Shown piece after piece: positions 2,061-63,909 of a DNA stretch of 64,000 bases. A program made the translations under genes and the position numbers. Every line of letters starts with the position of its first letter. Position 1 is the stretch's first letter. The DNA is taken from assembly GCA_038825875.1 (NCBI GenBank), contig JAWBOS010000001.1, positions 14,881-78,880 of the forward strand, in the 5' to 3' direction. The notes beneath the pieces were generated by a model. The model was given only the letters and a program-made list of their open reading frames with translations, did no database searches and was not told where the DNA came from. This DNA comes from Candidatus Woesearchaeota archaeon. Lineage in GTDB: Archaea; Nanobdellota; Nanobdellia; Woesearchaeales; JAWBMQ01.

Positions 2061-2527
2061 TAAAGCCCCATTGAAACAAAGTACTCATGCTTATTTAAAA
2101 AGATAGTATTAATCTTACCATCATACACATACTGGAAGTACTGATCAGGTATACTAGTAAAAGTACTATTTAAATTTAAAATACTACCATTTGATAACAA
2201 ACGAATCTCTAATTCTTTATCAACATATACCCATGTTACGTTTCCATCACTTAAAAACACCAATATCGATGAATTCAAACCCTGAGATGAAAGAAATTTT
2301 TTGTAATCCTGAATATAAGCAATAAGAGCACTCCCCAAGTCTAATTGATTAAATAAAGCATAATTAACTATTACCGGAATTTCTTTTTGAAAATTTTCAA
2401 TAAAATAAGCTCCTACAATAACATCTTTTTTAATACTAGATCTTATAAAATATGCGAAAATTGCAACTATCAAAATCACAAAAAGTAGGAAAAATTGGCC
2501 TTTCTTGTTAAGACCTTTCATTTTCAT
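2057..2527 (-). CDS. Archaeal type IV pilin-like protein (class III signal peptide NKKGQ|FFLLFVILIVAIF)
   Basis: Textbook KKGQ + hydrophobic stretch; N-x-S/T sequons; 4-nt overlap with giant upstream gene. Confidence 0.5.
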   Translation of the reverse strand: MKMKGLNKKGQFFLLFVILIVAIFAYFIRSSIKKDVIVGAYFIENFQKEIPVIVNYALFNQLDLGSALIAYIQDYKKFLSSQGLNSSILVFLSDGNVTWVYVDKELEIRLLSNGSILNLNSTFTSIPDQYFQYVYDGKINTIFLNKHEYFVSMGLY

Positions 2528-5500
2528 TCAACAACCTCAAAGTCCAATAAAGGATTTCCAAAGGAATCATAACCAATATTTACTATTCTTATTTTTCTCA
2601 CACCTGAATCAAGTTTAAAATTTTTGGTTTTAAACTTAAAGTTCTGTAAAGGAATAAAGACCAAAAGATTGTCTTTTTCAATGCTCCTCAAATTTCCAAA
2701 TGTAATCTGCTCAGTTTCAATTAGATTTTTATACAAATATGATTCAACTGTTCTAGGATTGAAATCAGGCGTAGTGACAAAAAGATAGAATGATCCTGAA
2801 GAAAGATCTCCCTTAATAGCATTAGCTCCCTCAACAGCAAAAACTCTAGAATCATCAACACCAATTCCATAAGCATAATCCTGAGTTACATTGTAAAGCA
2901 TTTTGAACAAAGAATTACTTGTTTCCTCTAATTGAAAATAACCTATAAACTCATCTACTGGTGATGTTATTGACCTAGCAAATGTATTATATCCATCAGA
3001 AAGTACAATAGTAAAAGTAAATTCATTGCTAAGGAATTCCATGGAATTATATCTCGGAGCCTTAAATGTCAAAAGATATTGACCGCCACCAAAATCAATC
3101 ATTGAAAAGTCCTTGACTTCATAGTTCACATCAATAGAATTAACTATTATCTTGAACCAGTTTCTAGGAATATTTGCGATTCCCATCCCATCTTTTAAAA
3201 CCTGCACATTAATAGACATAAGAGTTTCTGAAACTATAGGAGTAGTAGCAAGTGATACTGTTAATGATGCACCTGCAAGTGTATTTTGAAGAGCCTTATT
3301 GAAAACGATTTGTGTAGTGTTAAATAATCCGACTTTGTTTATACACACAACATCAACTATAACATTTCCACTTCCCGGCAAGTATACCATTGTTTCATGA
3401 AATGTAGAATCACTATAAAGGAAATTGTAATATGTTGAACCACCATCAATAGAATACCTACAATAAGCAACCTCATCAGTCTTTACTGTTACTTTTACTT
3501 GATCATTTATCACTATACCTGATGGCGTAGTATAGAGGAAAAGCGGTGGTGTAGTATCTAGCTCAGTAAAAGTATTATCGCTCCAATAAGATGGATTTAG
3601 AGCAGCATCATAACTTCTTACTCTAACATAGTAGTTCTTATTTTCAGGCAATCCACTGATATTCAAAGCAAAGTACTGATCAAGATCTACCAATTCTGAA
3701 AGAGTATAATTTTTTGAAAATACAATCGAGGAAAAATTTAACACTTGAACTTCATAAAATCTTATGATCTTTGATTCAAAATCAAGTGATTTAGTAAATG
3801 CAAGAGTCAATATGGTGGTGTTCTCAATTTGATACGCATAAATCAACTTTGGTTGTGTAGGCATAGTGAAATCAGAACAAATTCTAAAAACACCTAAATC
3901 ACCGATATTACCTGCAAGATCTCTAGCAGCAACATAAAAATAGAGCTCTCCATCAACACTCAAGGGCATTGAAACATTAGTTGAATTCACAAAAGAATAA
4001 ACAAAACTCACATTGTATGCTGAAATGTTGTAAGTATAAAGCCCGTATGCATAATCCTGAACTCCTGAACCTAAATCATTTGCAGTCCAATTTGCAGAAA
4101 ATATCTTTGCATTTGTCCAATAATTTCCTTGAGGAGCTATACAGTTCATGTGAGTAGTTGACAAAATTAAAGGAACTGAAGGTGGGGTAAGATCTGCTGT
4201 AACGTTATCACTTATAGACCAATTACTACAATAACCTGCAAGATTACAACTTCTAACTTTTATATAAAATCTATCATCCTGTTGATAAGTACCATTGTAG
4301 TAAAATATTATCTTTGTTGAATTTGTTATTCCCGTAGCGTTTAAATTTTCATTTTTATATAATTCATATTCATATTGTAATGGCAGATTGAGTAGAGATT
4401 GCTCAAAATCATAGCTACCAACAAAAGCAAATTCTATATAATCTGTCAAATTAATCCATTTTTTAGGCACTACAATGCTAGGTTCTGATGGTGGAGTTAT
4501 ATCCAATTTTGCTCCTGTTCTATCAAGCAAAATTTTATTTTGTGTAATATTAACATTTCCTGCAAGATCTCTTACTACAGCAAAAACAGTTTTGTTACCA
4601 TCATAAGTTGTGAGATAAAGTCCTCCAGAACACTGCTTATAACTGAAATCCTTTTGTAAAGAAGGAGTAATTACTATTCTATCAATTGTTACATTTATTC
4701 CTGAAACCTGAGATAAAACAAATCCACTGCAAGCATATAAGTATCCATCGAGATAAACAACTGAAGAAGTTTCGTTAAATTGAACGATTATCTCATGCCA
4801 ACCTCGATCAAGTCTAATACTGTGTGAACAAAAGTTAAGGTTTGATCCGTTGTATATAAAGTTAACTCCTAAGTCCATAGAAAATTTGTTTTGTGGTTCA
4901 ATGTAAAATCGTGAAAAAATCGTACCGTTGTTTAAAGAAATAGACTTTGAAAAATTTCCTTTTAAAGCAAAATCCTTAACCAATGGCCTACCAATAAATT
5001 CGCCTGAATATAAGATTTGATTATACTCCAACGTTACGGGAGAAAATTCATCAATTAATACACTTTCCATAACTAAACATTCATCTAAAGAACCTGTAGC
5101 CACATCATAATATATAAATGGTAAAGCAGTAACTGATTGATTATATTGTACAAATCCTCTTGCTGATAAAGTATGCAAATTTAATGCAGGCGTTGGAATT
5201 ATGTTGTCAACAGAAATGTATTTTCTAAAAATATAACTAAATCCAAAAAGATCTGTAACAGAAAGCAAAAATTCAAATACTCCATTCTGATTGGGAACTG
5301 TAATATTTCTCTGATACAAATAACCTTCTATCGTGTAATCATCAAAATATAAAGGATAGACTGCCCCAAAAGCAGTTAAATTAACAAATAATGTTCTATT
5401 ATCAAATGCTAAAAATCTCACTGTGATTATGTCATTAGGTTTTACAATTTCCTCAGAAATGCTTAAAACTCCTATCACTCCATATCTTCTAACTTCAGTT

Positions 5501-8500
5501 ATATTGATATTACTTTTCATCCCTTCTTTATTAGCCGCATCAATTGCAACAACATAATACTTATACACACCATCTATTACATAGTCAAAGTATTGTGTAG
5601 AAGTAGTATATGTAAGCAAATAAAAGACGTCATTTTCAAATGCTCTGTAGATAGCATATCTCACTGCTCCAGAGATTGGATTCCAACTGAGATTTATAAT
5701 TCCATCCCGATCATATCTATCAAGAACTTGCAAGACCGGAGCTGGTAAGATTGCATTTAGAATAAAAAACCTATAGGAAACATTTGCAAGCAAATTGTTT
5801 AAATTATCTCTTGCCTCTAACCACATAAGATATGCTCCATCTGGAAATTGGGTTGTATTGAGTATAAAAGAAGTTTCTAAACCATCAAAAATTTTTGTAG
5901 GAATGGTTGTATTTAAAAAGATCTTTAGATTATAGGTATTTTGTGGTAAATGAACCACATATGTCTTTAAACCATAAATATAAGAATCATTAACAAGATC
6001 ATAAACAAATAGTGAATAGTTTCCTATTAAATTGTCAAATATCACAAAGTACAATCTACTGCAACCAGTATTATTTAATTCATCTTTAGCACAGGCATAA
6101 ATCTGATGTGAACCCTGCAAATAATTTAAAGTGTTAACCTCAATAAAATTTTGATTTAAAAATGTGCAGTTTCCATCTATACAAAAAGTATAATTTACAA
6201 TAGAGCTATCATCGCTTGCAATAATATCAAATCTAACCATTCCCTTGAAGATTTGATTATTAGTTACTTCTTTTCCATCATGATAAACACTTACTAATGG
6301 AGCGCTAAAATCAATAAATGTATTCTTAGTTACACTTAAAGTATTTCCTGCTCTGTCATACCCTACAACCATAACAGAACATAGTCCATATGAAGATGGA
6401 TTAACATATGCACTTCCACTGATTCTAGTCAAAAATATATTGCAAATATAGATATCATAGTACTGAATATCTGGATCCCCCACAGGATCAATCAAAAAAG
6501 GAACATTAACCCTTGATGGCAAGCTAAAGTCAAAATTAATTTTACCATCTATCGTTATATTTGAAACATTAGTTTCTGCCAATAAATTATTCTCAAAATC
6601 ATAAGCTTTTGCAATAATGTAACAATTTTCAACTTCTGATCCAGAATATTGGGAAATTCCCCAGATCGTTGTTAAAGAATAAATTGTAGGACTTAAAAAA
6701 CCACAATTAGTATTTAAAGTAATGTATTTAGTATTTGAAGGAGCCAAAAATCTTAATGTAAAATTTTGTGCTTTTAGAATCGCATTATCCTCTAAATTCA
6801 AGATTCTTAAAATTTCTCTAAAATTATTGACATATTTTGAAAAAGAGACTTCTGCAAAATTATTGAAATCATCTCGTACAACAATTCTAAAGTAATGCAA
6901 ACCATCAGAGAATAAAGTTGTATCTAATGGAAAATAAGCATTAAATGCCCTTTGTTCAAAGGTATATGCAAAATCAGGAAATATAACTAATTCATCAATA
7001 GCACCTGAATAATAATCAGAAGAACCATCATTACATCCTATAAAAAGATTCTCCGTAGGTTGAACATTGCCAGAAAAACTACCTGCGTGATATTTTGAAC
7101 CATCAATAACGATTTCTACTCTCTTATTAGTGTTATCTATTAAAAAAAGTACATGATGCCATTGATCATCATTTATTGAATTTTCTGTTTGCAAAACTGT
7201 TTGTCCATTTACAAAAGCTTCCAATCGACCATTATTTAATCTTAGCATATATCCCGATGTTGTTGACATCTTATCAATCAATACTCCACTGGTTGCCGTT
7301 GTTTTGATCCAAAAACTTATACCCAAATTAGGATTAGGATTCAATAAAGAATCATGATTAACCCTCAAACAATTTGAAGAAAAATAAATAGCCGATCCGT
7401 AATAACCAGGACCATAAGTAAAATCAGAACCTATTTGAGTGACAGTTCTAGCATAAAAAGATCTATCTGCGTATGTACCATCAAATGGCAAAGTTAGCGA
7501 AGAGTTTTTATATTCTGTAAACCTTGAAGAATCAACAAAAAGCTGAAAATCATATTTTGGATTTATATCAAAATAATAAAAACCAAAAACTGATTTGTTG
7601 TAAACATAATATGCATCTAATGTCTGAAACAAACTGGGTTTTGTAAAATCTGCATACAAATTAAAATTCCCTGAAACAATATTTCCAGCTATGTCTTTAC
7701 AAGCATAATATATTGTGTTTATTCCTTCATTAAGAATAAAACTTATCGTATGTTTTCTAAGACCACTCAGGATATAAGGCATATTATCAAAAGGAAGATT
7801 AGATCTTGAGATCCTACACTCAGCATCTTCGTTTGTGTCAAATTCTATAACTATTGGATTATAGTTATACTTTTGATCAAAAGGGATGTTATAGACAATA
7901 GGAGCACTTGAATCAATTTCTAAAATTTTAGCAACCTTCAAAACATTTCCTTGTCGATCTAAAGCAGTAATGTTCACCAAAAAATTTCCACTACTTATTG
8001 ATGGAACTGTAAAATTAAAACAATAGACACCATCATTAGCAACTGAATCGCAATCTGTTCCATCATCTCTCATTTTTCCTGTAATTGGAGAAAAGAAGTG
8101 TATTGTAATATTTACATCATAATTAATGTCATTTTGATAATAAACTATTGCATTATCTCCAGGTTTAAATTTTTGCTTAGAAAAATAAACAATTCCAACT
8201 GAACTAGGAGCAACACAAGAATAAATTTGAGACAAGAAGAAGGATCCAACATAAACATAGCCACAATATCTAATAATCCCATCATACAAAATATTATCTC
8301 TAACATCTCCAAATTCCACTATTAGATTGTTTATTGTAGAATTTAGAATATGAGAATATAGAATAGTTGAGTTTAAAACAGTTGATGAATCTACTACAGA
8401 ATGGTTTATTATAGAATTAACAACATTAGAATTAATCACAATGCTGTCTGGGCTGATGTATGACTCTGAAAAACCTGAAAAAAGTGTAAACAACAGGAAA

Positions 8501-8547
8501 ATTAATAAAAACAACCATTCTTTTCTTTTAAATAACAAATCAGTCAT
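2524..8547 (-). CDS. Giant (2007 aa) secreted surface/adhesin-like protein with Sec signal peptide, LamG/concanavalin-like lectin domain and FN3-like repeats; heavily N-glycosylatable
   Basis: N-terminal MTDLLFKRKEWLFLLIFLLFTLFSGFS signal; LamG-like signature about aa 385-540 (ISFWIKTT..GVLI..LRLNNGRLEAFVNGQ..NDDQWHHVLF..VEIVIDG..LFIGCNDG..YSGAIDELVIF); FN3-like LSWNPISGAVRYAIYR; dozens of N-x-S/T; no C-terminal TM anchor. Confidence 0.6.
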   Translation of the reverse strand: MTDLLFKRKEWLFLLIFLLFTLFSGFSESYISPDSIVINSNVVNSIINHSVVDSSTVLNSTILYSHILNSTINNLIVEFGDVRDNILYDGIIRYCGYVYVGSFFLSQIYSCVAPSSVGIVYFSKQKFKPGDNAIVYYQNDINYDVNITIHFFSPITGKMRDDGTDCDSVANDGVYCFNFTVPSISSGNFLVNITALDRQGNVLKVAKILEIDSSAPIVYNIPFDQKYNYNPIVIEFDTNEDAECRISRSNLPFDNMPYILSGLRKHTISFILNEGINTIYYACKDIAGNIVSGNFNLYADFTKPSLFQTLDAYYVYNKSVFGFYYFDINPKYDFQLFVDSSRFTEYKNSSLTLPFDGTYADRSFYARTVTQIGSDFTYGPGYYGSAIYFSSNCLRVNHDSLLNPNPNLGISFWIKTTATSGVLIDKMSTTSGYMLRLNNGRLEAFVNGQTVLQTENSINDDQWHHVLFLIDNTNKRVEIVIDGSKYHAGSFSGNVQPTENLFIGCNDGSSDYYSGAIDELVIFPDFAYTFEQRAFNAYFPLDTTLFSDGLHYFRIVVRDDFNNFAEVSFSKYVNNFREILRILNLEDNAILKAQNFTLRFLAPSNTKYITLNTNCGFLSPTIYSLTTIWGISQYSGSEVENCYIIAKAYDFENNLLAETNVSNITIDGKINFDFSLPSRVNVPFLIDPVGDPDIQYYDIYICNIFLTRISGSAYVNPSSYGLCSVMVVGYDRAGNTLSVTKNTFIDFSAPLVSVYHDGKEVTNNQIFKGMVRFDIIASDDSSIVNYTFCIDGNCTFLNQNFIEVNTLNYLQGSHQIYACAKDELNNTGCSRLYFVIFDNLIGNYSLFVYDLVNDSYIYGLKTYVVHLPQNTYNLKIFLNTTIPTKIFDGLETSFILNTTQFPDGAYLMWLEARDNLNNLLANVSYRFFILNAILPAPVLQVLDRYDRDGIINLSWNPISGAVRYAIYRAFENDVFYLLTYTTSTQYFDYVIDGVYKYYVVAIDAANKEGMKSNINITEVRRYGVIGVLSISEEIVKPNDIITVRFLAFDNRTLFVNLTAFGAVYPLYFDDYTIEGYLYQRNITVPNQNGVFEFLLSVTDLFGFSYIFRKYISVDNIIPTPALNLHTLSARGFVQYNQSVTALPFIYYDVATGSLDECLVMESVLIDEFSPVTLEYNQILYSGEFIGRPLVKDFALKGNFSKSISLNNGTIFSRFYIEPQNKFSMDLGVNFIYNGSNLNFCSHSIRLDRGWHEIIVQFNETSSVVYLDGYLYACSGFVLSQVSGINVTIDRIVITPSLQKDFSYKQCSGGLYLTTYDGNKTVFAVVRDLAGNVNITQNKILLDRTGAKLDITPPSEPSIVVPKKWINLTDYIEFAFVGSYDFEQSLLNLPLQYEYELYKNENLNATGITNSTKIIFYYNGTYQQDDRFYIKVRSCNLAGYCSNWSISDNVTADLTPPSVPLILSTTHMNCIAPQGNYWTNAKIFSANWTANDLGSGVQDYAYGLYTYNISAYNVSFVYSFVNSTNVSMPLSVDGELYFYVAARDLAGNIGDLGVFRICSDFTMPTQPKLIYAYQIENTTILTLAFTKSLDFESKIIRFYEVQVLNFSSIVFSKNYTLSELVDLDQYFALNISGLPENKNYYVRVRSYDAALNPSYWSDNTFTELDTTPPLFLYTTPSGIVINDQVKVTVKTDEVAYCRYSIDGGSTYYNFLYSDSTFHETMVYLPGSGNVIVDVVCINKVGLFNTTQIVFNKALQNTLAGASLTVSLATTPIVSETLMSINVQVLKDGMGIANIPRNWFKIIVNSIDVNYEVKDFSMIDFGGGQYLLTFKAPRYNSMEFLSNEFTFTIVLSDGYNTFARSITSPVDEFIGYFQLEETSNSLFKMLYNVTQDYAYGIGVDDSRVFAVEGANAIKGDLSSGSFYLFVTTPDFNPRTVESYLYKNLIETEQITFGNLRSIEKDNLLVFIPLQNFKFKTKNFKLDSGVRKIRIVNIGYDSFGNPLLDFEVVE

Positions 8548-17306: not shown

Positions 17307-18635
17307 ATGAGAATACTTGTTTTAAATCTGCCCTTTGAAAAACCCATTATAAGAAGATATTCCTGCAGTTATTATGCACATGGTTTTCTTTATGAACCTC
17401 ATGAATTGTTGAGAGTTGCTACAATTCTCAAAGAAGGAAAGAATGAAATATTATTCCTTGATTGCATTGCGGAAAAGAAAAATGTAACTTCTACCATTGA
17501 ATACATAAAGAAGAAAAGGATTGATTTGATAATTACTATGTTAGGAATTGACTTTGTTACTGAAGATTATAAAACAATAACTACTATAAAAAAGAATTGT
17601 AGAGTGAAGATTGTAGGAATAAGTTATATTGCGTCTCTTTTTCCTGAAATGTTCAAAAATCTTGATGCAATCTTAAATAAATTTTTCGAGGAAAAAATAG
17701 CAAATGCAAAAAATGAAACAACATTAGACCGATTTCTAAAAAAATTAAAGATTGATGTAAAAGAAAAGAATCCAGACATAATAAAGAAAGTAGACAGATC
17801 TTTTTTAAATTTCAAAGACTATACTGAACTTTTAACTTCAAAATGCGCATTCATTTATTTTGGATTTGGATGCCCATTTAAATGCAATTATTGTATAAGA
17901 TCCTATGATCTGAATGAGTATAAAATTCGAAGCAAGGAATTTGTATTTGATGAATTAAAAACTATTTTTTTGGAAGGGTATAGAAATGTAAGAATTATGG
18001 ACGATAACTTTACATTGAACTCAAATTTTCTTATGGAACTTTCAGAATTTCTAAAAAAAGAAAATATTCATCTCAATTTTTATGGACTTAGTAGAATTGA
18101 TCTTTTAAACGACAAAACTATCGAACTCCTAAGAAGAATAAACGTTAAGCGTCTTTACATAGGACTTGAAACTTTTAAGCAAGATATGCAAAAATACTAT
18201 GACAAAAACATAAAGATAGATATAGAAAAATTCACGGAAATCTTTAAAAAATTAAGATCCTCAAAAATTGAAACAGGGGTTTGGTTGCTTTATCATCCAA
18301 TAAAGGACAGAAAAGAAGAAATATTAGATTGGATCAACATTCTATTAAAATTAAATCCTGACTTTGTAAACTTGAGTATAATCACTCCATATCCCAACAC
18401 TTTGTTTTTTGAAATGGAAAAATCAAATTTTGTTTTCTCCATAAATCCATTCAAATCTGAATTTTCCATAACAAATTATGAAGATGTTGAAAAGGAATTC
18501 TTCAGAAGATATCTTTTCCATCCGAAAAATGTACTAAAACATATCAAACTAGCAATAAGAAACCCAAATTTACCAGCGGAACTTCTACTAGATCTTCTTT
18601 CTAAAAAAAGAACTCAAAGAAAAGACTTAATTTAA
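17307..18635 (+). CDS. B12-binding-domain radical SAM protein (class B rSAM-like)
   Basis: N-terminal Rossmann-like cobalamin-binding-type region followed by FGFGCPFKCNYCI (CxxxCxxC). Confidence 0.6.
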   Translation: MRILVLNLPFEKPIIRRYSCSYYAHGFLYEPHELLRVATILKEGKNEILFLDCIAEKKNVTSTIEYIKKKRIDLIITMLGIDFVTEDYKTITTIKKNCRVKIVGISYIASLFPEMFKNLDAILNKFFEEKIANAKNETTLDRFLKKLKIDVKEKNPDIIKKVDRSFLNFKDYTELLTSKCAFIYFGFGCPFKCNYCIRSYDLNEYKIRSKEFVFDELKTIFLEGYRNVRIMDDNFTLNSNFLMELSEFLKKENIHLNFYGLSRIDLLNDKTIELLRRINVKRLYIGLETFKQDMQKYYDKNIKIDIEKFTEIFKKLRSSKIETGVWLLYHPIKDRKEEILDWINILLKLNPDFVNLSIITPYPNTLFFEMEKSNFVFSINPFKSEFSITNYEDVEKEFFRRYLFHPKNVLKHIKLAIRNPNLPAELLLDLLSKKRTQRKDLI

Positions 18636-43973: not shown

Positions 43974-45953
43974 GTGGTGAAAAAAATGGAAAATAAATAC
44001 TATCAAAAATTTGTAAGGGGTATTTTATTTTTAATATTTGCAAATGTTCTTATGTACTTTGCACATGGTCTGAGTATTGTGGATTTGAGCACATTTGACT
44101 TATTAAACAGAAGTTTTGGAAACGTGACATTGAGAGCAAATCTAAGTGAAGGAACTCATGAATATTTCTCTTGCTCGTTGTACCTTAATGACAATTTAAA
44201 TGAAACAAAAATTGCTCAAAATAACACTATTGTTTCATTTGTCAAACTAAACCTCAACTCATCTAGTTATAGTTACAGAATAGAATGTTCAAACGATACT
44301 GAAACAGCAAGCTTATCTGGCAATTTTTTTGTTAATCGAGTATTTAGTGCAAGATCAAATGCAGAAGTAATTGTTTACAAAAATTATCCATTCAGATTGA
44401 ATTTAACCTCTATTTTTAATGTAAATGATCCAGAAAGAGATGTTATTGGTTTTGAACTTTTAACTGAAAATGATGAAGTTTCCCTCAGCGAAAACATTCT
44501 CGAAGGAAATTTTTCAAAAGAGGGTATTTTTGTTTTAAATTTTTCATTATATGAGGTAAATGTCGAACCAAAATTCCAAAGAATTGGCACGTTGACCATA
44601 AAATCAATGATTCCTCAAGGTAGTTTAGAATATAATAAAAGCATTACTTTAAATGATGATGAAGCTAAAAAACAAGGAGAAAAGGTCTATGGCAGATTTA
44701 CGCTAATTAACACAGGAACAATTCCCTTAGAAATTAAATTAACATCTAGCACTGATTCCTTAAAGGTAGAAAACAAAAAAACATATTCTTTTTCAATATC
44801 TCCTAATGAAGAAGCAAGGATTAATCTTGAATATCTCATTGATTTTAATCTTCCCTCAGGAGTAAATGAAATTGCCACACTCACTATTGAAGCCAACAAT
44901 TCCCAATTCAATTTTAAAATGAGTGATTCGATAAAGGTTTTTGTTTTTGTTCCATCTTTATTAGAAGTAAACGAACTATATCTTTCCGCAGAATTATCTA
45001 ATGAAGAAATCAATCTATTAAGCTCAGATTTCGAAAGGAAAGAGAATAAATACACTATAAAATCTTCATCTAATTATTTACCAGTAAAACCAGGAGATCA
45101 AGTAAGAATTGAGGTCTTATTAAAAGCAAATCTTCTCAATTTTTATGACATCTACGGAAAATTGAAAATAGACAAAGATGAATTTGATATTGAAACTGAA
45201 AATGAAGAAAGTTACATTGAAATAAAGAAGGATAAAACAGACAAGATTTCATTTTCGTTTGACGTGCCTCAAAGAGTAAAATCTGATACAACATATCCAT
45301 TTGAAATCACAATTGAAGGAAAAGACTCCACTTATCGCAGAAGACATAGAATCACAATTCTTGGTTATCTAACTATAGACAAAGATTCAAAGTCAATTTA
45401 TGTAAAGGACATAACACTTAATCCTACCGAAATAGATTGCAAGTATAGCACAACCTATTTGACAGGTACTATTTACAATACCGGATACTCGCAAATAACA
45501 TTAAACTACAGATTAATAAATAGAGATCTTAATTTCACAATAGAGAATTCTTGTACATTGCGAGAGTATACATCTTCAAGAAGAAGCGATGATTACTGTG
45601 ATATATTTGAAGAGATCTCTTTTAACAAAAACATAAACCCAGGAAATTACCGATTTGAATTCGGAGTAACTGACAATTCTGGAAGATTGCTCTATGGACC
45701 TCAGTATATTGCACTAAAAGTAAAGGAATGTCCTGTAATTCAACCAACCTTACCAGAAAAACCAGCTGAAGAGAAAAAGAATGAATCAATAGTTGTCATA
45801 GAAGTTCCCACGAATCAAACAGAAACACCAACCGTTATAATAGAAGAACCCAGCAAAACTCAATTAAAAGAAGTAATACTATACACTGCGATCATTATAC
45901 TTTTGATTTCAGTAATCGTTATGACCATAATCTTAATAAGGAATCTTAAATAA
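43974..45953 (+). CDS. Cell-surface (S-layer/adhesin-like) glycoprotein with signal peptide, Thr/Pro-rich stalk and C-terminal TM anchor
   Basis: Signal ILFLIFANVLMYFAHG; many N-x-S/T; stalk PTLPEKPAEEKKNES..TNQTETPTV; C-terminal helix ILYTAIIILLISVIVMTIILI + basic tail. Confidence 0.55.
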   Translation: MVKKMENKYYQKFVRGILFLIFANVLMYFAHGLSIVDLSTFDLLNRSFGNVTLRANLSEGTHEYFSCSLYLNDNLNETKIAQNNTIVSFVKLNLNSSSYSYRIECSNDTETASLSGNFFVNRVFSARSNAEVIVYKNYPFRLNLTSIFNVNDPERDVIGFELLTENDEVSLSENILEGNFSKEGIFVLNFSLYEVNVEPKFQRIGTLTIKSMIPQGSLEYNKSITLNDDEAKKQGEKVYGRFTLINTGTIPLEIKLTSSTDSLKVENKKTYSFSISPNEEARINLEYLIDFNLPSGVNEIATLTIEANNSQFNFKMSDSIKVFVFVPSLLEVNELYLSAELSNEEINLLSSDFERKENKYTIKSSSNYLPVKPGDQVRIEVLLKANLLNFYDIYGKLKIDKDEFDIETENEESYIEIKKDKTDKISFSFDVPQRVKSDTTYPFEITIEGKDSTYRRRHRITILGYLTIDKDSKSIYVKDITLNPTEIDCKYSTTYLTGTIYNTGYSQITLNYRLINRDLNFTIENSCTLREYTSSRRSDDYCDIFEEISFNKNINPGNYRFEFGVTDNSGRLLYGPQYIALKVKECPVIQPTLPEKPAEEKKNESIVVIEVPTNQTETPTVIIEEPSKTQLKEVILYTAIIILLISVIVMTIILIRNLK

Positions 45954-47734: not shown

Positions 47735-48469
47735 ATGAATATAAACTCTGAAAAAGAAGATTTAAAGCAGCTAATACAAAATATTTACAATATTCTGCTA
47801 AAAAATTATGGTTATCAAGGATGGTTTCCATTAATAAGATTTCCTGGAACTAATCCAACAAAAAGTGGCTCTATAAGAGGTTATCATCCAAATAATTATG
47901 ATCTCCCAAAAACAATTGATGAGATTTATGAGGTATGTATTGCTTCTATATTAACCCAAAATACTAACTGGATAAATGCTGAAAAAGCCTTATTAAATCT
48001 CTACAAAAACAATGTTTTAAATCCAAACATCATAGCTATTTTAGATATTAAGAAGCTAAAGGAATTAATTAAATGTGCAGGGTTTTATAATCAAAAGTCA
48101 GTGAGAATCAAGGAATTTACTCATTGGTTTTTATTGAACTTAGATAGATTGAATAGTATAAAAAGAGAGGAATTGTTAAAGATAAAGGGTATTGGTAAAG
48201 AAACAGCAGACACAATACTATTATATGCTTTGAAAAAACCATTTTTTGTAATAGATTCCTATACCATGAGATTTTGTTATCGATTAGGCATTAATTTTAA
48301 GAATTATGATGATCTGCAAGAAATATTTCAAATTTCTCTAGAGCAAGATTTTAGGATTTATAATGAGTATCATGCATTAATAGTGGAGCACTGTAAAAGA
48401 TTTTGTAAAAAAACTCCTAATTGTGATATCTGCATACTCAAAACTATTTGCCAAAAACGCCTAGATTAA
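47735..48469 (+). CDS. nth: Endonuclease III-like HhH-GPD DNA glycosylase with [4Fe-4S] loop
   Basis: ILTQNTNW, HhH IKGIGKETADTILLYAL, C-terminal C-x6-C-x2-C-x5-C (CKRFCKKTPNCDICILKTIC). Start at ATG 47735 preferred (track start 47651 overlaps neighbour). Confidence 0.75.
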   Translation: MNINSEKEDLKQLIQNIYNILLKNYGYQGWFPLIRFPGTNPTKSGSIRGYHPNNYDLPKTIDEIYEVCIASILTQNTNWINAEKALLNLYKNNVLNPNIIAILDIKKLKELIKCAGFYNQKSVRIKEFTHWFLLNLDRLNSIKREELLKIKGIGKETADTILLYALKKPFFVIDSYTMRFCYRLGINFKNYDDLQEIFQISLEQDFRIYNEYHALIVEHCKRFCKKTPNCDICILKTICQKRLD

Positions 48470-49909
48470 ATGTTCATACTTTTTTCTCTCTTCATTACTA
48501 AGATTTTCCAACCAAATTCTATCAAACCCTTCTTCATAGTTTCTTCTTTTTTTGTTCCAATTGCTCTGTATATCTCCAAAAATAGAGCAAAAAAAAGGAT
48601 CCAACACTGTTTTAACCTGATTGGAATATTCTCTCAAAGAATCCTTAATTTCCATAATTCTATTTTCATAATTATTGTCTGTGGAAATTGGTTTATATTT
48701 CTCAATTAAATTAAGAATGTTTTTAGGATTATCTATGATCATACATGGCATTAGTAAGTTGTTTGTATGTGGTTGATGGAGTCTTATTGCCTTAAAAAAC
48801 TCGCTATCCCATGCGTCTTTTAATGTAACTTCCTTCAGATTATGGGTAGCTAAATGAACAAATATACATGGTTCAAGATAACCATCATTTGTCACATGTG
48901 CATATCGTCTTGCTGCAATACAACCACCTACTGCTGGTGCATCATTCCAAAAATCCATTAAGAAAAAGGGTTTATTATTTCGTACATAATTAACAACCTC
49001 GTACATATTCTTTCTTTGTTCAGGAGTGGGCATAAGTTCTAAATTACTACCTTTTGAAACAGGCATATACAAGAAAATCCAACCAAATAAAGCTCCCCTA
49101 TTAATCCAATCATCATAAAACTTTTCATTACTGAGAGTATTGTAATTTGAAGATGTCAGAACTAAGGAAATTCCAAATAATCTTCCATTATTATATAATT
49201 TCTCGGCCAATGAAGAAACCTCTTTATAAACACCTTTTCCTCTCAAGCTATCTGTTTCACTTTCTGTGCCATCTACACTTAGCGCAGGGATAAGATTAGG
49301 TATTTCCAATAAATCTTCTAAAGTTTTTTTATTTCTGTTTAGATAGGTTCCATTTGTGAACATCTGAAAAATGCTCCGGTTATGTTTTTTGAAAATATCC
49401 TTAAAATCACTTATTTTCAAACTTGGCTCTCCACCTAAGATTGTAAAGAAATGTGTGCCCATCTGCTCAGCTTGACTAATTATTGAATCAAAAAATTCTT
49501 TACTCATATCATTTTTTCTATCATATGTTTTTGCATAACAACCATCACATTCAAGATTACAAGCCATGGTAGGACTTATTAATAATGTAAATGGTGCAGG
49601 AAATTCCTTAGAAGAATCCAACTCCTTGTTTTTTCTTAACCATTCCAAACCAGAGTAGAGAATCATATTTCTAAAGAAGATGCGAACCTGTTCATAATCT
49701 CTATTGAATATATTAATGAACAATTTTCTTGGTCCTGGATTTTCAAGAATCCATGCAAAAAACTTTTTACCTGTTTCATTCTCTGTCAAAGAATAGAACT
49801 TTTTGAAAAGTTTGTCCAAATTTTTCTCAGGATTATGATAAATCTTTGAAACATAATGATCTACAACACTTTCTAGAAGTTTTTCTCTTATCCTTTCAAT
49901 CAATCTCAT
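48461..49909 (-). CDS. Radical SAM protein with about 110-aa N-terminal extension and Twitch/partial-SPASM-like C-terminal Cys region; function unknown
   Basis: TMACNLECDGCYA (CxxxCxxC) at about aa 117; later GGCIAARRY...EPCIF...MPCMIID cysteines; no precursor peptide nearby. Confidence 0.6.
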   Translation of the reverse strand: MRLIERIREKLLESVVDHYVSKIYHNPEKNLDKLFKKFYSLTENETGKKFFAWILENPGPRKLFINIFNRDYEQVRIFFRNMILYSGLEWLRKNKELDSSKEFPAPFTLLISPTMACNLECDGCYAKTYDRKNDMSKEFFDSIISQAEQMGTHFFTILGGEPSLKISDFKDIFKKHNRSIFQMFTNGTYLNRNKKTLEDLLEIPNLIPALSVDGTESETDSLRGKGVYKEVSSLAEKLYNNGRLFGISLVLTSSNYNTLSNEKFYDDWINRGALFGWIFLYMPVSKGSNLELMPTPEQRKNMYEVVNYVRNNKPFFLMDFWNDAPAVGGCIAARRYAHVTNDGYLEPCIFVHLATHNLKEVTLKDAWDSEFFKAIRLHQPHTNNLLMPCMIIDNPKNILNLIEKYKPISTDNNYENRIMEIKDSLREYSNQVKTVLDPFFCSIFGDIQSNWNKKRRNYEEGFDRIWLENLSNEERKKYEHLI

Positions 49910-60631: not shown

Positions 60632-60763
60632 TCACTCTATGCTTGATCTATCACAACACCATCTATCATCCCATCCGTCATTTATCCAACCTCCATTATT
60701 TTGGCCCCAGTCATCCCAATTGGGATGGGAATTGGTTCCATTCACAAAATTTGTCAATTCCAT
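60632..60763 (-). CDS. Unannotated 43-aa Trp/Asp/Gly/Asn-rich peptide MELTNFVNGTNSHPNWDDWGQNNGGWINDGWDDRWCCDRSSIE: candidate RiPP precursor
   Basis: ATG (60763..60761) 2 nt after the stop of the upstream PEP-utilizer gene, with GGAGGTGA RBS inside that gene's 3' end; TGA stop at 60634..60632 followed by a T-run. 6 Trp in 43 aa in a 30%-GC genome; repeated WDDW / GWDDRW units and a CC pair. Confidence 0.45.
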   Translation of the reverse strand: MELTNFVNGTNSHPNWDDWGQNNGGWINDGWDDRWCCDRSSIE

Positions 60764-60765
60764 TC

Positions 60766-61113
60766 TTATTCACCTCCTTCGTGAACTTGAATTGTTCCAT
60801 CTTCAAAATTAATAACTAATTTATCACCTGTTTTAATTACTGTATCAGCATTCTCAACGCCAACTATTGATGGAAAATTAAGTTCTCTAAAAATAATTGA
60901 AGCATGACTCAACAATCCCCCAAAAGATGTAACTACACACTTAAACTGTAAAATTTTTTCAATATAATCCAAATTAACTCTTTTACAAATCAAAATTTTC
61001 TCACTAGGATGATTGGGCAAATTTTCACAAAATGGATCAACATATGCAATACCTTCAATAATATTATTATGGGGTTTTACGACTACAGATCCTTTAAGTA
61101 TCATTTTTCTCAC
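60766..61113 (-). CDS. Stand-alone PEP-utilizing-enzyme mobile (phosphohistidine swivel) domain protein
   Basis: VVTSFGGLLSHASIIFRELNFPSIVGV matches the PEP-utilizers signature (GG..SHAAI.ARE.G.P.VVG) with the phosphorylatable His; 115 aa only. Confidence 0.7.
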   Translation of the reverse strand: MRKMILKGSVVVKPHNNIIEGIAYVDPFCENLPNHPSEKILICKRVNLDYIEKILQFKCVVTSFGGLLSHASIIFRELNFPSIVGVENADTVIKTGDKLVINFEDGTIQVHEGGE

Positions 61114-62029
61114 ATACTATTTCTTCTTGAATCCTTAATATTGTAGGACTAAGAGAGGGATAATTCTCAATAACATCACTAACCTTAAAATAAGGTAATC
61201 TAAAATATCTGCTTATTGTTATAAAATAAGAAAGTTTTGAATCAAAATCATTATCTGGTAACATAAAATAGAATGCATTGTTGTAATACTTGCAGTTGAT
61301 TATGGGGTCTTGAACATATATATTTTCAGGTGGTTCTAAATTCAAAAGGATTTTTCTTAATTCTTCTGCAGAAATTTTTTTTCTTTCAAAAATTTCTAGG
61401 AAAAGTCTTGTAATATCATAATAACAATCCAAATAAAATCTATTGTAATCAACAAAAGAAAAAAGGTAATAATAATTCAAATTTTCTTTCAATTTCTTTT
61501 TTCGAAATCTCAATATCTTTTTTGTGTTTTTTGAAATTTTCGACTGATCCAAAAACAGATAATGACGTGGCAATGCATAAAAAACCCATCTAAAGGAGAA
61601 AAGAGGTGTATCAAAAAAAGAAGAATCTAAATTTGCATTCAAAATTTCCTTCTCTAATGAATGATAAACTAGGATATAGAGATGATAATAAGTAAGAAAA
61701 TTCAAATAAGATTGAAACATTTTAGAAATTTCAGAGGTATAATTTGCTAAAAATCGATAAAAATAATAATCTAGATTCATTTTTACAATTTCTAATCTGG
61801 GTTTAAATTCAAAATTCTTGGGAACAAGATGATACTTCAATCTATCGTTTAAATCAAAGTATTCCTTATCATCAATTTTAGTCAAATAAAACTTATCATT
61901 CTTCTCTATTATCTCAATTTTTGGTTTTTCATGAAAAAAGCAAGATCTGAATCTAAAGGCAATCTGATTAACAATATCTACAATGTTTTCATTTTTTATT
62001 TCTAACAAACTTGAATCTTTCATTTTCAA
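61094..62029 (-). CDS. Hypothetical Tyr/Phe-rich 311-aa protein, translationally coupled between the rSAM and PEP-utilizer genes
   Basis: No recognisable motif by eye; 4-nt overlap with rSAM gene, about 11-20 nt overlap with PEP-utilizer gene. Confidence 0.4.
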   Translation of the reverse strand: MKMKDSSLLEIKNENIVDIVNQIAFRFRSCFFHEKPKIEIIEKNDKFYLTKIDDKEYFDLNDRLKYHLVPKNFEFKPRLEIVKMNLDYYFYRFLANYTSEISKMFQSYLNFLTYYHLYILVYHSLEKEILNANLDSSFFDTPLFSFRWVFYALPRHYLFLDQSKISKNTKKILRFRKKKLKENLNYYYLFSFVDYNRFYLDCYYDITRLFLEIFERKKISAEELRKILLNLEPPENIYVQDPIINCKYYNNAFYFMLPDNDFDSKLSYFITISRYFRLPYFKVSDVIENYPSLSPTILRIQEEIVCEKNDT

Positions 62030-63258
62030 GATATTCTTTTTGGAGTTTTATAAAATAAATCACTATGTTCATATTTCTTAAAAAATGTTTTTGAAAAGTA
62101 AAACAACAAAGCAGGATTTCTTGTTACATACTCAAAAAAAATCTCTAACCAAATCTTATTATATTCACAAGAGTGTTTCAAAGATTTAAAGGAAAACAAA
62201 TATGCTTTTCCAACACAAGGATGTCTGCATATATAATTAAATTTACAAGTCTCACATCCCAAAGTATCTGAGATTTTCTTTGAAAGGTTTAAAATCTTCT
62301 TTCTATTATCTTGAAAATCCTCAGAATTCATTAAAAAATCCTCTAATCCAATAACACTATCACATCCGTATATTTTTCCATCCATAGAGAATCCTATAAT
62401 CCACTTAAATGCTCCGCAGTTTTCATCATAACACAAAGAACCAGTCATCCCCAGTATTCTTTCAGCATATAATCTAACAGGATCTAATGTTATACTCAAT
62501 CTTTTTCTTAGATAGTAATCAATTAGTAATTCGACATTCCTCCTCACATTTTTTAAATCAGGTAGCAAAGAAAGATTATCTGTTTCCACAATATTATAAA
62601 GCACTCCTTTAAACATCTTATAGTTCAACAGTTTTTTGAAATCTTCAAAGATTTTAGAATCGTTAGTAGTATTAATTAAGTAAATAATTCCAAAGGGAAT
62701 TTTTAATTTTTCAAGAACATTCATTGCTTGAATTGCATAATTAGGATTTCTGGCACAATTCTCACCAAACCCATCAAAACTTAGACCAATTGAAACGTTC
62801 TTTTTATGCAAAAATATGGAAAATTCTTCATCCAATCCATAACCAGAGGTCTGAATTTCAAATCTAACATTTTTCAAGTTTCTTGATTCAAAAACCTCTA
62901 TAGTTTTTCTAATTCCATCTTTGTTTGTAAGTGGTTCAGCGCCATGGAATATAAGAACAACGGGTTTTTTCAGACTTTCAACAAATGAAGATAACTTATT
63001 AATTGTTTCATCTGTTAATTTGTACTCTTTTCTTGTCTCATTCAAAGTATCTAATCGTTTTACAAAGCAATAAGTGCAATTTAGAAAACAATCGTGAGAA
63101 ACATCAAACACAATAGTTAAATGTGGCTCTGCATAATTGTGTGCATTATATTCACTAATCTCTTCTTGAACGACAGGTTCATAACCTGTTCTAGTAATGT
63201 AAAAATGATTTTTAATATTCCAAATCGACCAACACTTGGAATTATAGACTAAATTCAT
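62026..63258 (-). CDS. Radical SAM enzyme with C-terminal SPASM domain (peptide-maturase-like)
   Basis: HDCFLNCTYCF (CxxxCxxC); C-terminal CDENCGAF..GCDS..CETCKFNYICRHPCVG SPASM-type cysteine pattern. Start trimmed to internal Met at 63258 to avoid overlap with aIF2-beta. Confidence 0.7.
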   Translation of the reverse strand: MNLVYNSKCWSIWNIKNHFYITRTGYEPVVQEEISEYNAHNYAEPHLTIVFDVSHDCFLNCTYCFVKRLDTLNETRKEYKLTDETINKLSSFVESLKKPVVLIFHGAEPLTNKDGIRKTIEVFESRNLKNVRFEIQTSGYGLDEEFSIFLHKKNVSIGLSFDGFGENCARNPNYAIQAMNVLEKLKIPFGIIYLINTTNDSKIFEDFKKLLNYKMFKGVLYNIVETDNLSLLPDLKNVRRNVELLIDYYLRKRLSITLDPVRLYAERILGMTGSLCYDENCGAFKWIIGFSMDGKIYGCDSVIGLEDFLMNSEDFQDNRKKILNLSKKISDTLGCETCKFNYICRHPCVGKAYLFSFKSLKHSCEYNKIWLEIFFEYVTRNPALLFYFSKTFFKKYEHSDLFYKTPKRIS

Positions 63259-63392
63259 ATGAGCATAAGTTAATAAGAAATAAAAATTTAAATTAATAAA
63301 TATTACCTTAAGACCACACATTGAAAGTAAATTTAAAGTTGACAACCAAGTTTCCAAAAAATATTTAAAAGAACAGGTAATCCAGCAACGAA

Positions 63393-63806
63393 ATGGAATC
63401 AGATTATCTAAGATTACTTGATAAAGCATACACACAATTGCCTGAAGTTGAAGAGGCTTCTATGAGACTTAAGATACCAAAAGTTGAAGCTGAAATTGAA
63501 GGAAATAAAACCATCATTAGAAATATTCGTCAAATTGCAAAAATACTAAATCGAGATCCTGAACACCTATTGAAATATTTTATGAAAAAATATGCAACAC
63601 CTGGACAATTGTTACCAAAATTTGGGGTACTAAACAGAAAGGTTTTATTGAATGAGCTTGACAAAGTTGTCTTACAATATCTTGAAGAATTTGTGATTTG
63701 TCCAGTGTGCAAAAGCCCAGACACGATAATCATAAGCAATGGAGCATATGGAACTTTAACCTGTAAGGCATGTGGAGCAAAGACCACAATTAAAGTTAAA
63801 TTATAA
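63393..63806 (+). CDS. Translation initiation factor 2 beta subunit (aIF2-beta)
   Basis: eIF2-beta/eIF5 core with C-terminal C4 Zn-ribbon CPVC..CKAC. Confidence 0.85.
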   Translation: MESDYLRLLDKAYTQLPEVEEASMRLKIPKVEAEIEGNKTIIRNIRQIAKILNRDPEHLLKYFMKKYATPGQLLPKFGVLNRKVLLNELDKVVLQYLEEFVICPVCKSPDTIIISNGAYGTLTCKACGAKTTIKVKL

Positions 63807-63909
63807 ATTCTTTCCAATTTTCTCTCCTCAAAAATAAAATTTAAAAAAGAACTTTTCTTACTTATAAATACCCAAAAACTAAAAATAAAAACTAAAAATA
63901 AAATAGGTT

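Follow-up and report, generated by a model that had tools for sequence, protein, structure and literature searches.

A Trp-rich peptide gene beside a radical-SAM/SPASM enzyme and a swivel-domain protein, a probable RiPP precursor of DPANN archaea

Several described groups of RiPPs resemble the locus that we report here. The triceptides (XyeB, YhhB, GrrM/OscB, FxsB, ChlB, and HtkB) share with it short precursors, repeated aromatic-x-x motifs, and a maturase of the radical-SAM (rSAM)/SPASM type; their motif is a repeated aromatic1-X2-X3, with the crosslink made to the C-beta of X3 (PMC11499958). More generally, known rSAM cyclophane synthases join an aromatic ring to a side-chain carbon within motifs of three to five residues (PMC11499958). 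Darobactin and dynobactin (DarE, DynA), streptide, tryglysin (WgkB), and WprB are further cases in which an rSAM/SPASM enzyme crosslinks Trp within a short core. The ranthipeptides (PapB/PapA) also have repeated motifs, of the form Cys-x3-Asp, which place an Asp a few residues from its partner, and PapB makes Cys-Asp thioethers (PMC10739248, PMC9413430). A different resemblance is to the dikinases (rifampin phosphotransferase, HpeHI/CreHI/PpsAB, PEP synthase, and PigC/RedH), which have in common the swivel signature T/SxxGGxxxH, the mark of phospho-His carriers (PMC12167813). Split, multicomponent dikinases are known, and rifampin phosphotransferase itself is built from ATP-grasp, substrate-binding, and swivel domains (PMC4844700).

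We analyzed a 64-kb stretch of DNA (the window; GC content, 30.4%) from a Candidatus Woesearchaeota MAG. Woesearchaeota belong to the kingdom Nanobdellati, i.e., to DPANN. Four genes of the window lie on the same strand with overlaps or 2-nt gaps between them, and they encode an rSAM/SPASM enzyme, a 311-amino-acid (aa) protein, a stand-alone swivel-domain protein, and, in last place, a small Trp-rich peptide (Table 1). The flanking genes are housekeeping genes, with a divergent aIF2-beta gene followed by those for a PAN-like AAA ATPase, S3Ae, and FtsZ; the mechanical rSAM ORF extends to a GTG at 63435, and at that length it would overlap the aIF2-beta gene. We conclude that the small ORF is a real, conserved gene and that it probably encodes the precursor of a RiPP pathway seen so far only in DPANN archaea, and we put the probability of this reading at roughly 75%. 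That the peptide is a RiPP precursor modified by this particular rSAM we consider likely, judging from the conserved gene neighborhood and motif described below.

Table 1. Features of the four-gene cluster, with coordinates counted from the first nucleotide of the window
Feature	Coordinates	Strand	Length	Basis or remark
Radical-SAM/SPASM peptide-maturase-like enzyme	62026..63321	(-)	431 aa as called in L002	PF04055, TIGR04085
311-aa protein, undescribed mostly helical family	61094..62029	(-)	311 aa	No Pfam/NCBIfam/PDB match
Stand-alone PEP-utilizer mobile ("swivel") domain protein	60766..61113	(-)	115 aa (gene callers: 112 aa)	PF00391, E 2e-14
SD-like site GGAGGTGA	60770..60777	(-)		6-nt spacer to ATG; within 3' end of swivel gene
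Predicted precursor peptide gene	60632..60763	(-)	43 aa	Translation, related-locus ORFs, motif specificity, dN/dS

The small ORF translates to MELTNFVNGTNSHPNWDDWGQNNGGWINDGWDDRWCCDRSSIE, and its boundaries are unambiguous, as the stop-to-stop frame holds just two codons 5' of the ATG. An initial annotation of the window had called the ORF unannotated; GenBank already lists it as hypothetical protein QXD62_02585 of the Candidatus Woesearchaeota MAG, and all six peptide ORFs of the family described below have been called independently as genes in public collections, under names that never go beyond "hypothetical protein." The same annotation had counted six TGG codons and estimated a Trp enrichment of about 10-fold. 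We count five in-frame TGG codons, and the enrichment is indeed strong, at about 17-fold (11.6%, compared to 0.69% in the window's long ORFs). The window has 793 stop-to-stop segments that span 30 codons or more, and the peptide ORF is the only one with more than 3 Trp in any 25 aa; at the window's Trp frequency, the probability that an ORF of 43 aa contains 5 Trp by chance is about 1e-5 by an arithmetic estimate. Residues 1 to 15 have a leader-like appearance, with a conserved N-terminal MEL, while residues 16 to 43 form an acidic core that is rich in Trp, Asp, Asn, and Gly and contains five W-x(1,2)-[D/N] motifs. The two quasi-repeats that had been pointed out, NWDDWG and DGWDDRW, are both present. 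A CC pair described as C-terminal is present as well (Cys36-Cys37), although DRSSIE comes after it; the peptide further contains many Asp and no Tyr.

The strong ribosome-binding site claimed for the ORF, with its 6-nt spacing, held up on inspection, and its 8-mer has just two occurrences on both strands of the 64-kb window. Since this site lies inside the last codons of the swivel gene, and since the swivel stop codon is only 2 nt before the peptide ATG, translation of the peptide is probably coupled to that of the upstream swivel gene. Coupling of peptide and swivel is also likely in one of the related loci (L008), and SD-like sites precede five of the six family peptides. The T-tract said to follow the stop codon is weak: there are only T3 runs in AT-rich DNA, and a promoter/terminator scan, which is based on a bacterial model and thus carries little information for an archaeal host, found no terminator-like site.

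Used directly as the query of a sequence search, the 43-aa peptide matched only itself, and an NCBIfam scan of all six peptides gave no match, such that no curated precursor family fits them. The 311-aa protein also retrieved only itself in a word-indexed search; an exhaustive HMMER search with it across 1.84 billion representative proteins recovered five distant relatives. We located related genomic loci through pattern scans with an alignment of the 311-aa family, and further contigs through exact look-ups. The family as described here comprises five lineages, with about eight different peptides among them. The enzyme set and Trp-rich peptides recur in all five of these divergent lineages (the window and four further ones), two of which are named DPANN archaea and three of which are only inferred to be archaeal. 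Every related locus that covers the region carries the enzyme set together with one or two adjacent Trp-rich ORFs of 39 to 46 aa, in agreement with the initial annotation's expectation of conserved small ORFs beside rSAM genes; in the distant loci these ORFs are homologous or analogous to that of the window. Closer to the window, contigs of four strains from other samples (99.1 to 99.97% identical) have the frame intact and encode the same peptide; two of the contigs differ by a single synonymous substitution in the ORF. An absent or disrupted frame in close relatives had been named as the outcome that would speak against the gene, and none of these strains shows it.

The order of the genes differs from lineage to lineage. 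In the window (30% GC) it is rSAM, 311-aa protein, swivel, and peptide; in a Nanobdellati MAG with 43% GC (L008/L012), it is swivel, peptide, rSAM, and 311-aa protein. In metagenomes with 22% GC (L010/L011/L027), two peptide genes, a and b, are followed by an rSAM-311 fusion and the swivel gene, and in an uncultured archaeon and metagenomes with 24 to 26% GC (L013/L014/L009), peptides a and b are followed by rSAM, 311-aa protein, a 620-aa ORF, and swivel. The peptide gene can thus be last (window), between other genes (L008), or first (L010 and L013), and two paralogous tandem precursors per cluster are common. The peptides of these loci are MDLSLGTTTYGGWEADGWEKDNWKSDSDGIDHWKATDRGQGQ (L008), MELIDKNNEKYRFDHPNWGDNWGTNHGGWNGDGWTDKWDNNNK (L010a), MILHINNQVGYNNWKGNVWDNEAPSPWSGDCWPDNNYSDSWIDSSP (L010b), MELCVVDNKFLKENGPVVGDTRSDWTGDYWNNDWSCDYN (L013a), and MELCVTNKKFINFTEEITVTDTWQGDKWDNHSWSSDWSCDY (L013b). 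Among the related-locus ORFs, HPNWGDNWGTNHGGWNGDGWTDKW is a clear homologue; the L010a peptide is 50% identical to that of the window, with a Trp spacing of 4, 7, 5, 4 compared to 3, 7, 5, 4. L010 and L027 also have a second swivel ORF, which follows a conserved 269-aa ORF unrelated to the 311-aa family. The C-terminal half of the 620-aa ORF in L013 is a paralogue of the 311-aa family (hhalign probability, 96%), and neither its N-terminal half nor the 269-aa ORF of L010 has a PDB or Pfam match. The sole locus without a peptide, L016, keeps the swivel and 311-aa genes and a 42-aa C-terminal remnant of the rSAM; unless it is misassembled, the peptide and the rSAM core were lost together.

Constant among the peptides are a MEL start (M-[E/D/I]-L), all Trp residues that lie in the part that can be aligned, and an Asp or Asn soon after each Trp. 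In the six peptides, 25 of 26 Trp have a D or N at position +2 or +3, and the count rises to 34 of 35 when two later variants (P0081 and L027 pepB, in which 9/9 Trp follow the pattern) are included. The D/N falls at +2 for 11/26 Trp and at +3 for 19/26 in the six peptides, positions that fit a ring of three to four residues, and the commonest unit is W-x-G-[D/N]-x-W. None of 20,000 shuffles of the cores matched the observed D/N counts, a comparison in which the six peptides are not fully independent. Each peptide carries three to five of these motifs. A search for at least 4 Trp in 30 aa together with any W..[DN] returned only cluster-adjacent ORFs when run, as a control, across 288 kb of DNA (5,105 stop-to-stop segments).

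The rSAM of the window is one of four orthologues that are 35 to 37% identical to each other. The CxxxCxxC radical-SAM motif (C78, C82, and C85) is invariant in all four, as are eight Cys of the SPASM region, which make up the complete seven-Cys SPASM motif, C302-x12-G-x4-C320...C356-x2-C-x5-C-x3-C369...C385, plus C297, and the TIGR04085 SPASM model gives a score of 30.7 bits, above its cut-off of 27. The best curated models for these rSAMs are a mixture (PapB, CbpB, HxsB, anSME, YhhB, DynA, and others), all of them far below cut-off, and the top matches span thioether, cyclophane, and sulfatase-maturase families. Given that the scores are below cut-off and spread over several families, the chemistry of the enzyme cannot be read from homology. 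Its best PDB relatives are CteB, anSME, and ChlB, the closest proteins in a word-indexed search are CbpB-like, at about 25% identity, and in viral contigs the rSAM alignment matched nothing beyond remote rSAMs of a generic kind. Only about 50 to 70 residues precede the radical-SAM core, which seems too short for a typical leader-recognition element, and there was no PqqD/RRE match in the rSAM or in the 311-aa family, for which the structural model is of low confidence.

We considered whether the Cys residues might be the site of modification. The product would then be a Cys-dependent thioether RiPP (a sactipeptide or ranthipeptide), with the rSAM joining the two adjacent Cys to Asp, or to residues of another kind, much as PapB joins Cys to Asp. 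The window peptide has the Cys pair and the abundant Asp that such chemistry would use, the full-length NCBIfam model that the orthologous rSAMs match best is PapB (68 to 104 bits), and CteB is the best PDB match. However, every PapB score is far below the cut-off of 340, and whereas all of the peptides have Trp and D/N, two of the six precursors (L008 and L010a) contain no Cys, and neither does the variant P0081. A further point, albeit weak, is that with eight invariant Cys in the SPASM region, both auxiliary clusters could be fully ligated, a state more typical where no thiolate of the substrate is bound by the enzyme. Given that Cys is missing from L008, L010a, and P0081, and that Tyr is missing from the window peptide, neither Cys nor Tyr can be the residue whose modification defines the family. 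As Cys is not conserved, we reject a Cys thioether as the chemistry that defines the family, and we regard the thioether reading overall as improbable.

We compared rates of evolution between L010 and L027. Peptide a has a dN/dS of 0.18 (74% aa identity) and peptide b has a dN/dS of 0.35 (53%), compared to 0.12 (93%) for the rSAM-311 fusion and 0.14 (91%) for the swivel protein. The peptides are under purifying selection, and yet they evolve much faster than the enzymes encoded beside them; RiPP precursors usually evolve faster than their enzymes. The precursor reading of the initial annotation, which had also proposed dN/dS across homologues as a check, is upheld by these values below 1, by the co-operonic rSAM/SPASM gene, and by the Trp-rich small ORFs in all of the related loci that cover the region.

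The same data bear on whether the peptide might instead be the precursor of an intracellular cofactor or metal-binding factor (PQQ- or mycofactocin-like, or a Trp-derived quinone) and not of a secreted product. Trp-derived quinone cofactors and rSAM-matured quinohemoprotein subunits do exist, and a quinohemoprotein maturase model is among the matches of the enzyme (54 to 67 bits). The housekeeping neighbors, the small DPANN-type genome of the host, and an acidic, Asp-rich core suited to cation binding could all be accommodated by this idea, as could the finding that the window cluster includes no protease, exporter, or immunity gene. However, the precursor of a cofactor is normally strongly conserved and present in one copy, whereas these peptides diverge much faster than their enzymes (53 to 74% versus 91 to 93% identity), vary in the number of Trp motifs, and are commonly found as two paralogues per cluster. 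The rarity of the system (six representative clusters in 1.84 billion proteins) also argues against a core role in metabolism. We therefore see little likelihood that a cofactor is the product.

In one of the five relatives that the HMMER search recovered, the 736-aa protein P0075, the rSAM is fused to the 311-aa domain, Rosetta-stone evidence for joint action of the two proteins. The 311-aa family has no Pfam match (E up to 10, no consistent match, and hence no sign of an RRE or dikinase domain) or NCBIfam match, and a PDB profile search gave 0 hits. From an alignment of five sequences, AlphaFold gives a mainly helical model of low confidence (pLDDT, 55; pTM, 0.50), and a fold search with this model returned only generic helical bundles. 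We propose that the 311-aa protein is a peptide- or substrate-binding partner of both the rSAM and the swivel protein. The swivel protein of the window carries the signature T-S-F-G-G-L-L-S-H70, in which H70 is the predicted phospho-His; G65, G66, and H70 are invariant in four orthologues, with Thr or Ser at position 62, and PF00391 matches the four cluster-adjacent swivel proteins with E values of 2e-14 to 3e-21. Among solved structures it aligns best to 5fbs/5hv1, entries of the Listeria rifampin phosphotransferase, and there to the C-terminal His domain. No ATP-grasp domain (PPDK_N type) was found in the cluster genes of the window, L008, L010, and L013, and a scan for ATP-grasp or PEP-binding donor domains, including PPDK_N, found none in the minimal cluster or in ten other large ORFs of the window.

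Alternatively, the ORF could encode a small, unmodified Trp-rich protein whose gene is transcribed together with those of the enzymes but which is not their substrate; a subunit for binding or regulation would be an example. Translational coupling between peptide and swivel, as in the window and L008, is what one would expect of subunits of a complex, and modification of the peptide is a prediction. However, peptides or proteins are the substrates of the rSAM/SPASM enzymes in this clade, the position of the peptide gene relative to the enzymes varies, tandem paralogues occur, and variable sequence around a fixed, repeated motif is a precursor-like pattern, all of which makes an unmodified subunit very unlikely. 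The initial annotation had offered a metal- or lipid-binding micropeptide as its own alternative; an unmodified micropeptide is less likely than a precursor, and metal or lipid binding could still be the activity of a mature product. Finally, a chance ORF in AT-rich intergenic DNA, which the shortness of the frame and the lack of a homologue in the direct protein search might suggest, is effectively refuted by the low probability of its Trp content, the strong SD site, the single synonymous substitution between strains, the motif-specificity control, and the homologous ORFs that lie, under purifying selection, beside the same enzymes in distant genomes.

Returning to the RiPP precursor reading, we propose the following pathway. 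The peptide would be the substrate of the rSAM, with its N-terminal 15 or so residues, beginning with MEL, acting as the leader. Because the N-terminal extension of the rSAM is only about 50 to 70 residues long, the leader might be bound by the 311-aa protein. The rSAM would then take a hydrogen from the side chain, probably at C-beta, of the Asp or Asn at +2 or +3, and this carbon would be joined to the indole of the preceding Trp, giving up to five small cyclophane rings. The interchangeability of Asp and Asn in the motif fits such C-H chemistry better than it fits carboxylate chemistry, and abstraction from an Asp C-H by PapB would be a second analogy for the proposed crosslink (PMC10739248). 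We hold a Trp-centered crosslink at the W-x-x-D/N motif to be plausible, at somewhat short of even odds.

The swivel protein most likely shuttles a phosphoryl group, and together with the 311-aa protein it may pass this group on to the peptide or an intermediate, drawing on a donor encoded outside the minimal cluster. Their cooperation is modeled here on the substrate-binding and swivel domains of rifampin phosphotransferase or HpeH. Phosphorylation of the peptide by the swivel domain is a more tentative suggestion than the crosslink. The full combination, in which a W-x-x-D/N-crosslinked precursor and a phospho-His swivel that acts on the peptide with a 311-aa peptide-binding protein would define a new archaeal RiPP class, is more doubtful still, and we put it forward as a speculation.

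The genomes of DPANN archaea are very small, and these organisms are considered host-dependent. A dedicated, conserved peptide-modification operon in such organisms suggests a molecule for interaction with a host or with competitors, and, if our reading is correct, the product would be a specialized metabolite of genome-reduced DPANN symbionts, possibly used in host interaction. The W-x-x-D/N motif, in three to five copies, amounts to a testable prediction of a new type of crosslink, and the enzymes are small enough to be reconstituted heterologously.

How the pathway stands relative to described systems can be seen from its maturase, its motif, and its accessory proteins. For the triceptides, a three-residue motif is defining, whereas the dominant spacing here is +3, which makes a four-residue motif. 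Nor does the maturase reach the cut-offs of the triceptide and cyclophane models, with scores of 52 to 63 bits against 445 for YhhB, 39 against 450 for XyeB, 38 to 43 against 310 for GrrM/OscB, 33 to 46 against 370 for FxsB, and 39 to 48 against 425 for AmcB. Unlike the triceptide pathways, this one is archaeal and adds both a 311-aa partner from an undescribed family and a phospho-His swivel. The known darobactin-type precursors are bacterial, and each contains just one short core, such as WNWSKSF, in which the partner residue is Lys, Arg, or Trp; the window, L008, and L010 rSAMs score 50 to 52 bits with the DynA model (cut-off, 450), and for none of these three enzymes does WgkB appear in the top 25 family matches. 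In the ranthipeptides, the partner residue of the Asp is Cys, whereas here it would be Trp, and the PapB scores given above fall well short of their threshold. CbpB (TIGR04163, "peptide-modifying radical SAM enzyme CbpB"), the closest relative by word-indexed search, gives 84 bits against a cut-off of 375. We rejected the CbpB loci that we examined as instances of the same system, as their upstream small ORF is a different one that is not Trp-rich and they have neither the swivel nor the 311-aa gene.

The comparison with the dikinases concerns the accessory proteins. In rifampin phosphotransferase and HpeH, the substrate-binding domain is followed by the swivel domain, an order that equals the gene order here, helical protein then swivel. 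In contrast to the dikinases, the swivel here is a stand-alone protein of about 112 aa with no ATP-grasp donor encoded nearby, and the 311-aa protein has no detectable similarity to the rifampin-binding domain. In the literature that we searched, we found no paper that connects a PEP-utilizer domain to RiPPs or to the maturation of peptides by rSAM enzymes, none on a RiPP of this kind from a DPANN archaeon, and none that reports the swivel or 311-aa proteins in RiPP biosynthesis. The pathway resembles that of an rSAM cyclophane RiPP, yet it falls outside every named family because its scores are far below their cut-offs, its dominant spacing is not that of a triceptide, and its Cys residues are not conserved. 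What is new here is the predicted precursor family, the accessory protein family, and the presence of a putative phospho-His component within an rSAM/SPASM RiPP. A ribosomal peptide, the presumed substrate, would be new for the dikinase enzyme class, and the pathway, if confirmed, would be the first case of PEP-utilizer/dikinase phosphotransfer chemistry in the maturation of a ribosomal peptide.

Locus L016 retains swivel and 311-family genes, and both the peptide and the rSAM core were absent from it together. We found that the 42-aa ORF at this locus is a remnant of the rSAM C-terminus (..VLLAYSRPS..), and we conclude that L016 is a degenerate or else misassembled form of the cluster.

Additional ORFs were found at distant loci with the same gene set. 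At the metagenomic loci L010 and L027, the second swivel-domain ORF was shorter, at 92 aa, and matched PF00391 at an E value of 1e-11. The 269-aa protein encoded with it showed no relationship to the 311-aa family and had no match in Pfam or the PDB. This 269-aa protein is a candidate for a missing phosphoryl-donor component. At L013, residues 334-619 of the 620-aa ORF, its C-terminal half, proved paralogous to the 311-aa family (96% probability in hhalign), and its N-terminal 333 aa had no match anywhere. The 144-aa ORF of L008, a locus in a Nanobdellati MAG, gave weak matches to retropepsin-like aspartyl proteases at an E value of ~4e-5, near or under the cut-off, and is a candidate leader peptidase.

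Coordinates of the features at the related loci and in the window
Sequence	Positions	Strand	Feature	Placement or domain
L016	106..1384		swivel gene, 42-aa ORF, 311-family gene	in that order
L010	7551..8643		conserved 269-aa ORF, then second swivel-domain ORF	downstream of cluster
L027	4268..5373		conserved 269-aa ORF, then second swivel-domain ORF	downstream of cluster
L013	5616..7478		620-aa ORF	between 311-family gene and swivel gene
L008	3599..4033		144-aa ORF	directly upstream of swivel gene
window	2524..8547	-	very large ORF, 2007 aa	
window	17307..18635	+	radical-SAM ORF, 442 aa	PF04055
window	43974..45953	+	659-aa ORF	
window	48461..49909	-	second rSAM/SPASM ORF, 482 aa	
window	62026..63435	-	mechanical rSAM ORF	
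window	63393..63806	+	aIF2-beta gene	divergent
window	63891..63903		13-nt indel	intergenic, beyond aIF2-beta gene

Read mechanically, the rSAM ORF of the operon comprises 469 aa from a GTG and would share 43 nt with the aIF2-beta gene. Its start is placed further downstream by gene callers, for a protein of 410 or 431 aa. The 13-nt indel, which is AT-rich, distinguishes the window from the near-identical strain contigs L001 and L002.

Elsewhere in the window, a Pfam scan of the 659-aa ORF returned no match, and its sole match was a weak one (26 bits) to PACE-CTERM-PROT, a putative S-layer protein model. We sought a Trp-rich small ORF beside the 482-aa rSAM/SPASM ORF, and there was none there. 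Among NCBIfam models, the 442-aa radical-SAM ORF most closely matched HpnR and BchE (~71 bits), and the 482-aa ORF the mycofactocin rSAM maturase (55 bits), in each case far under the cut-off.
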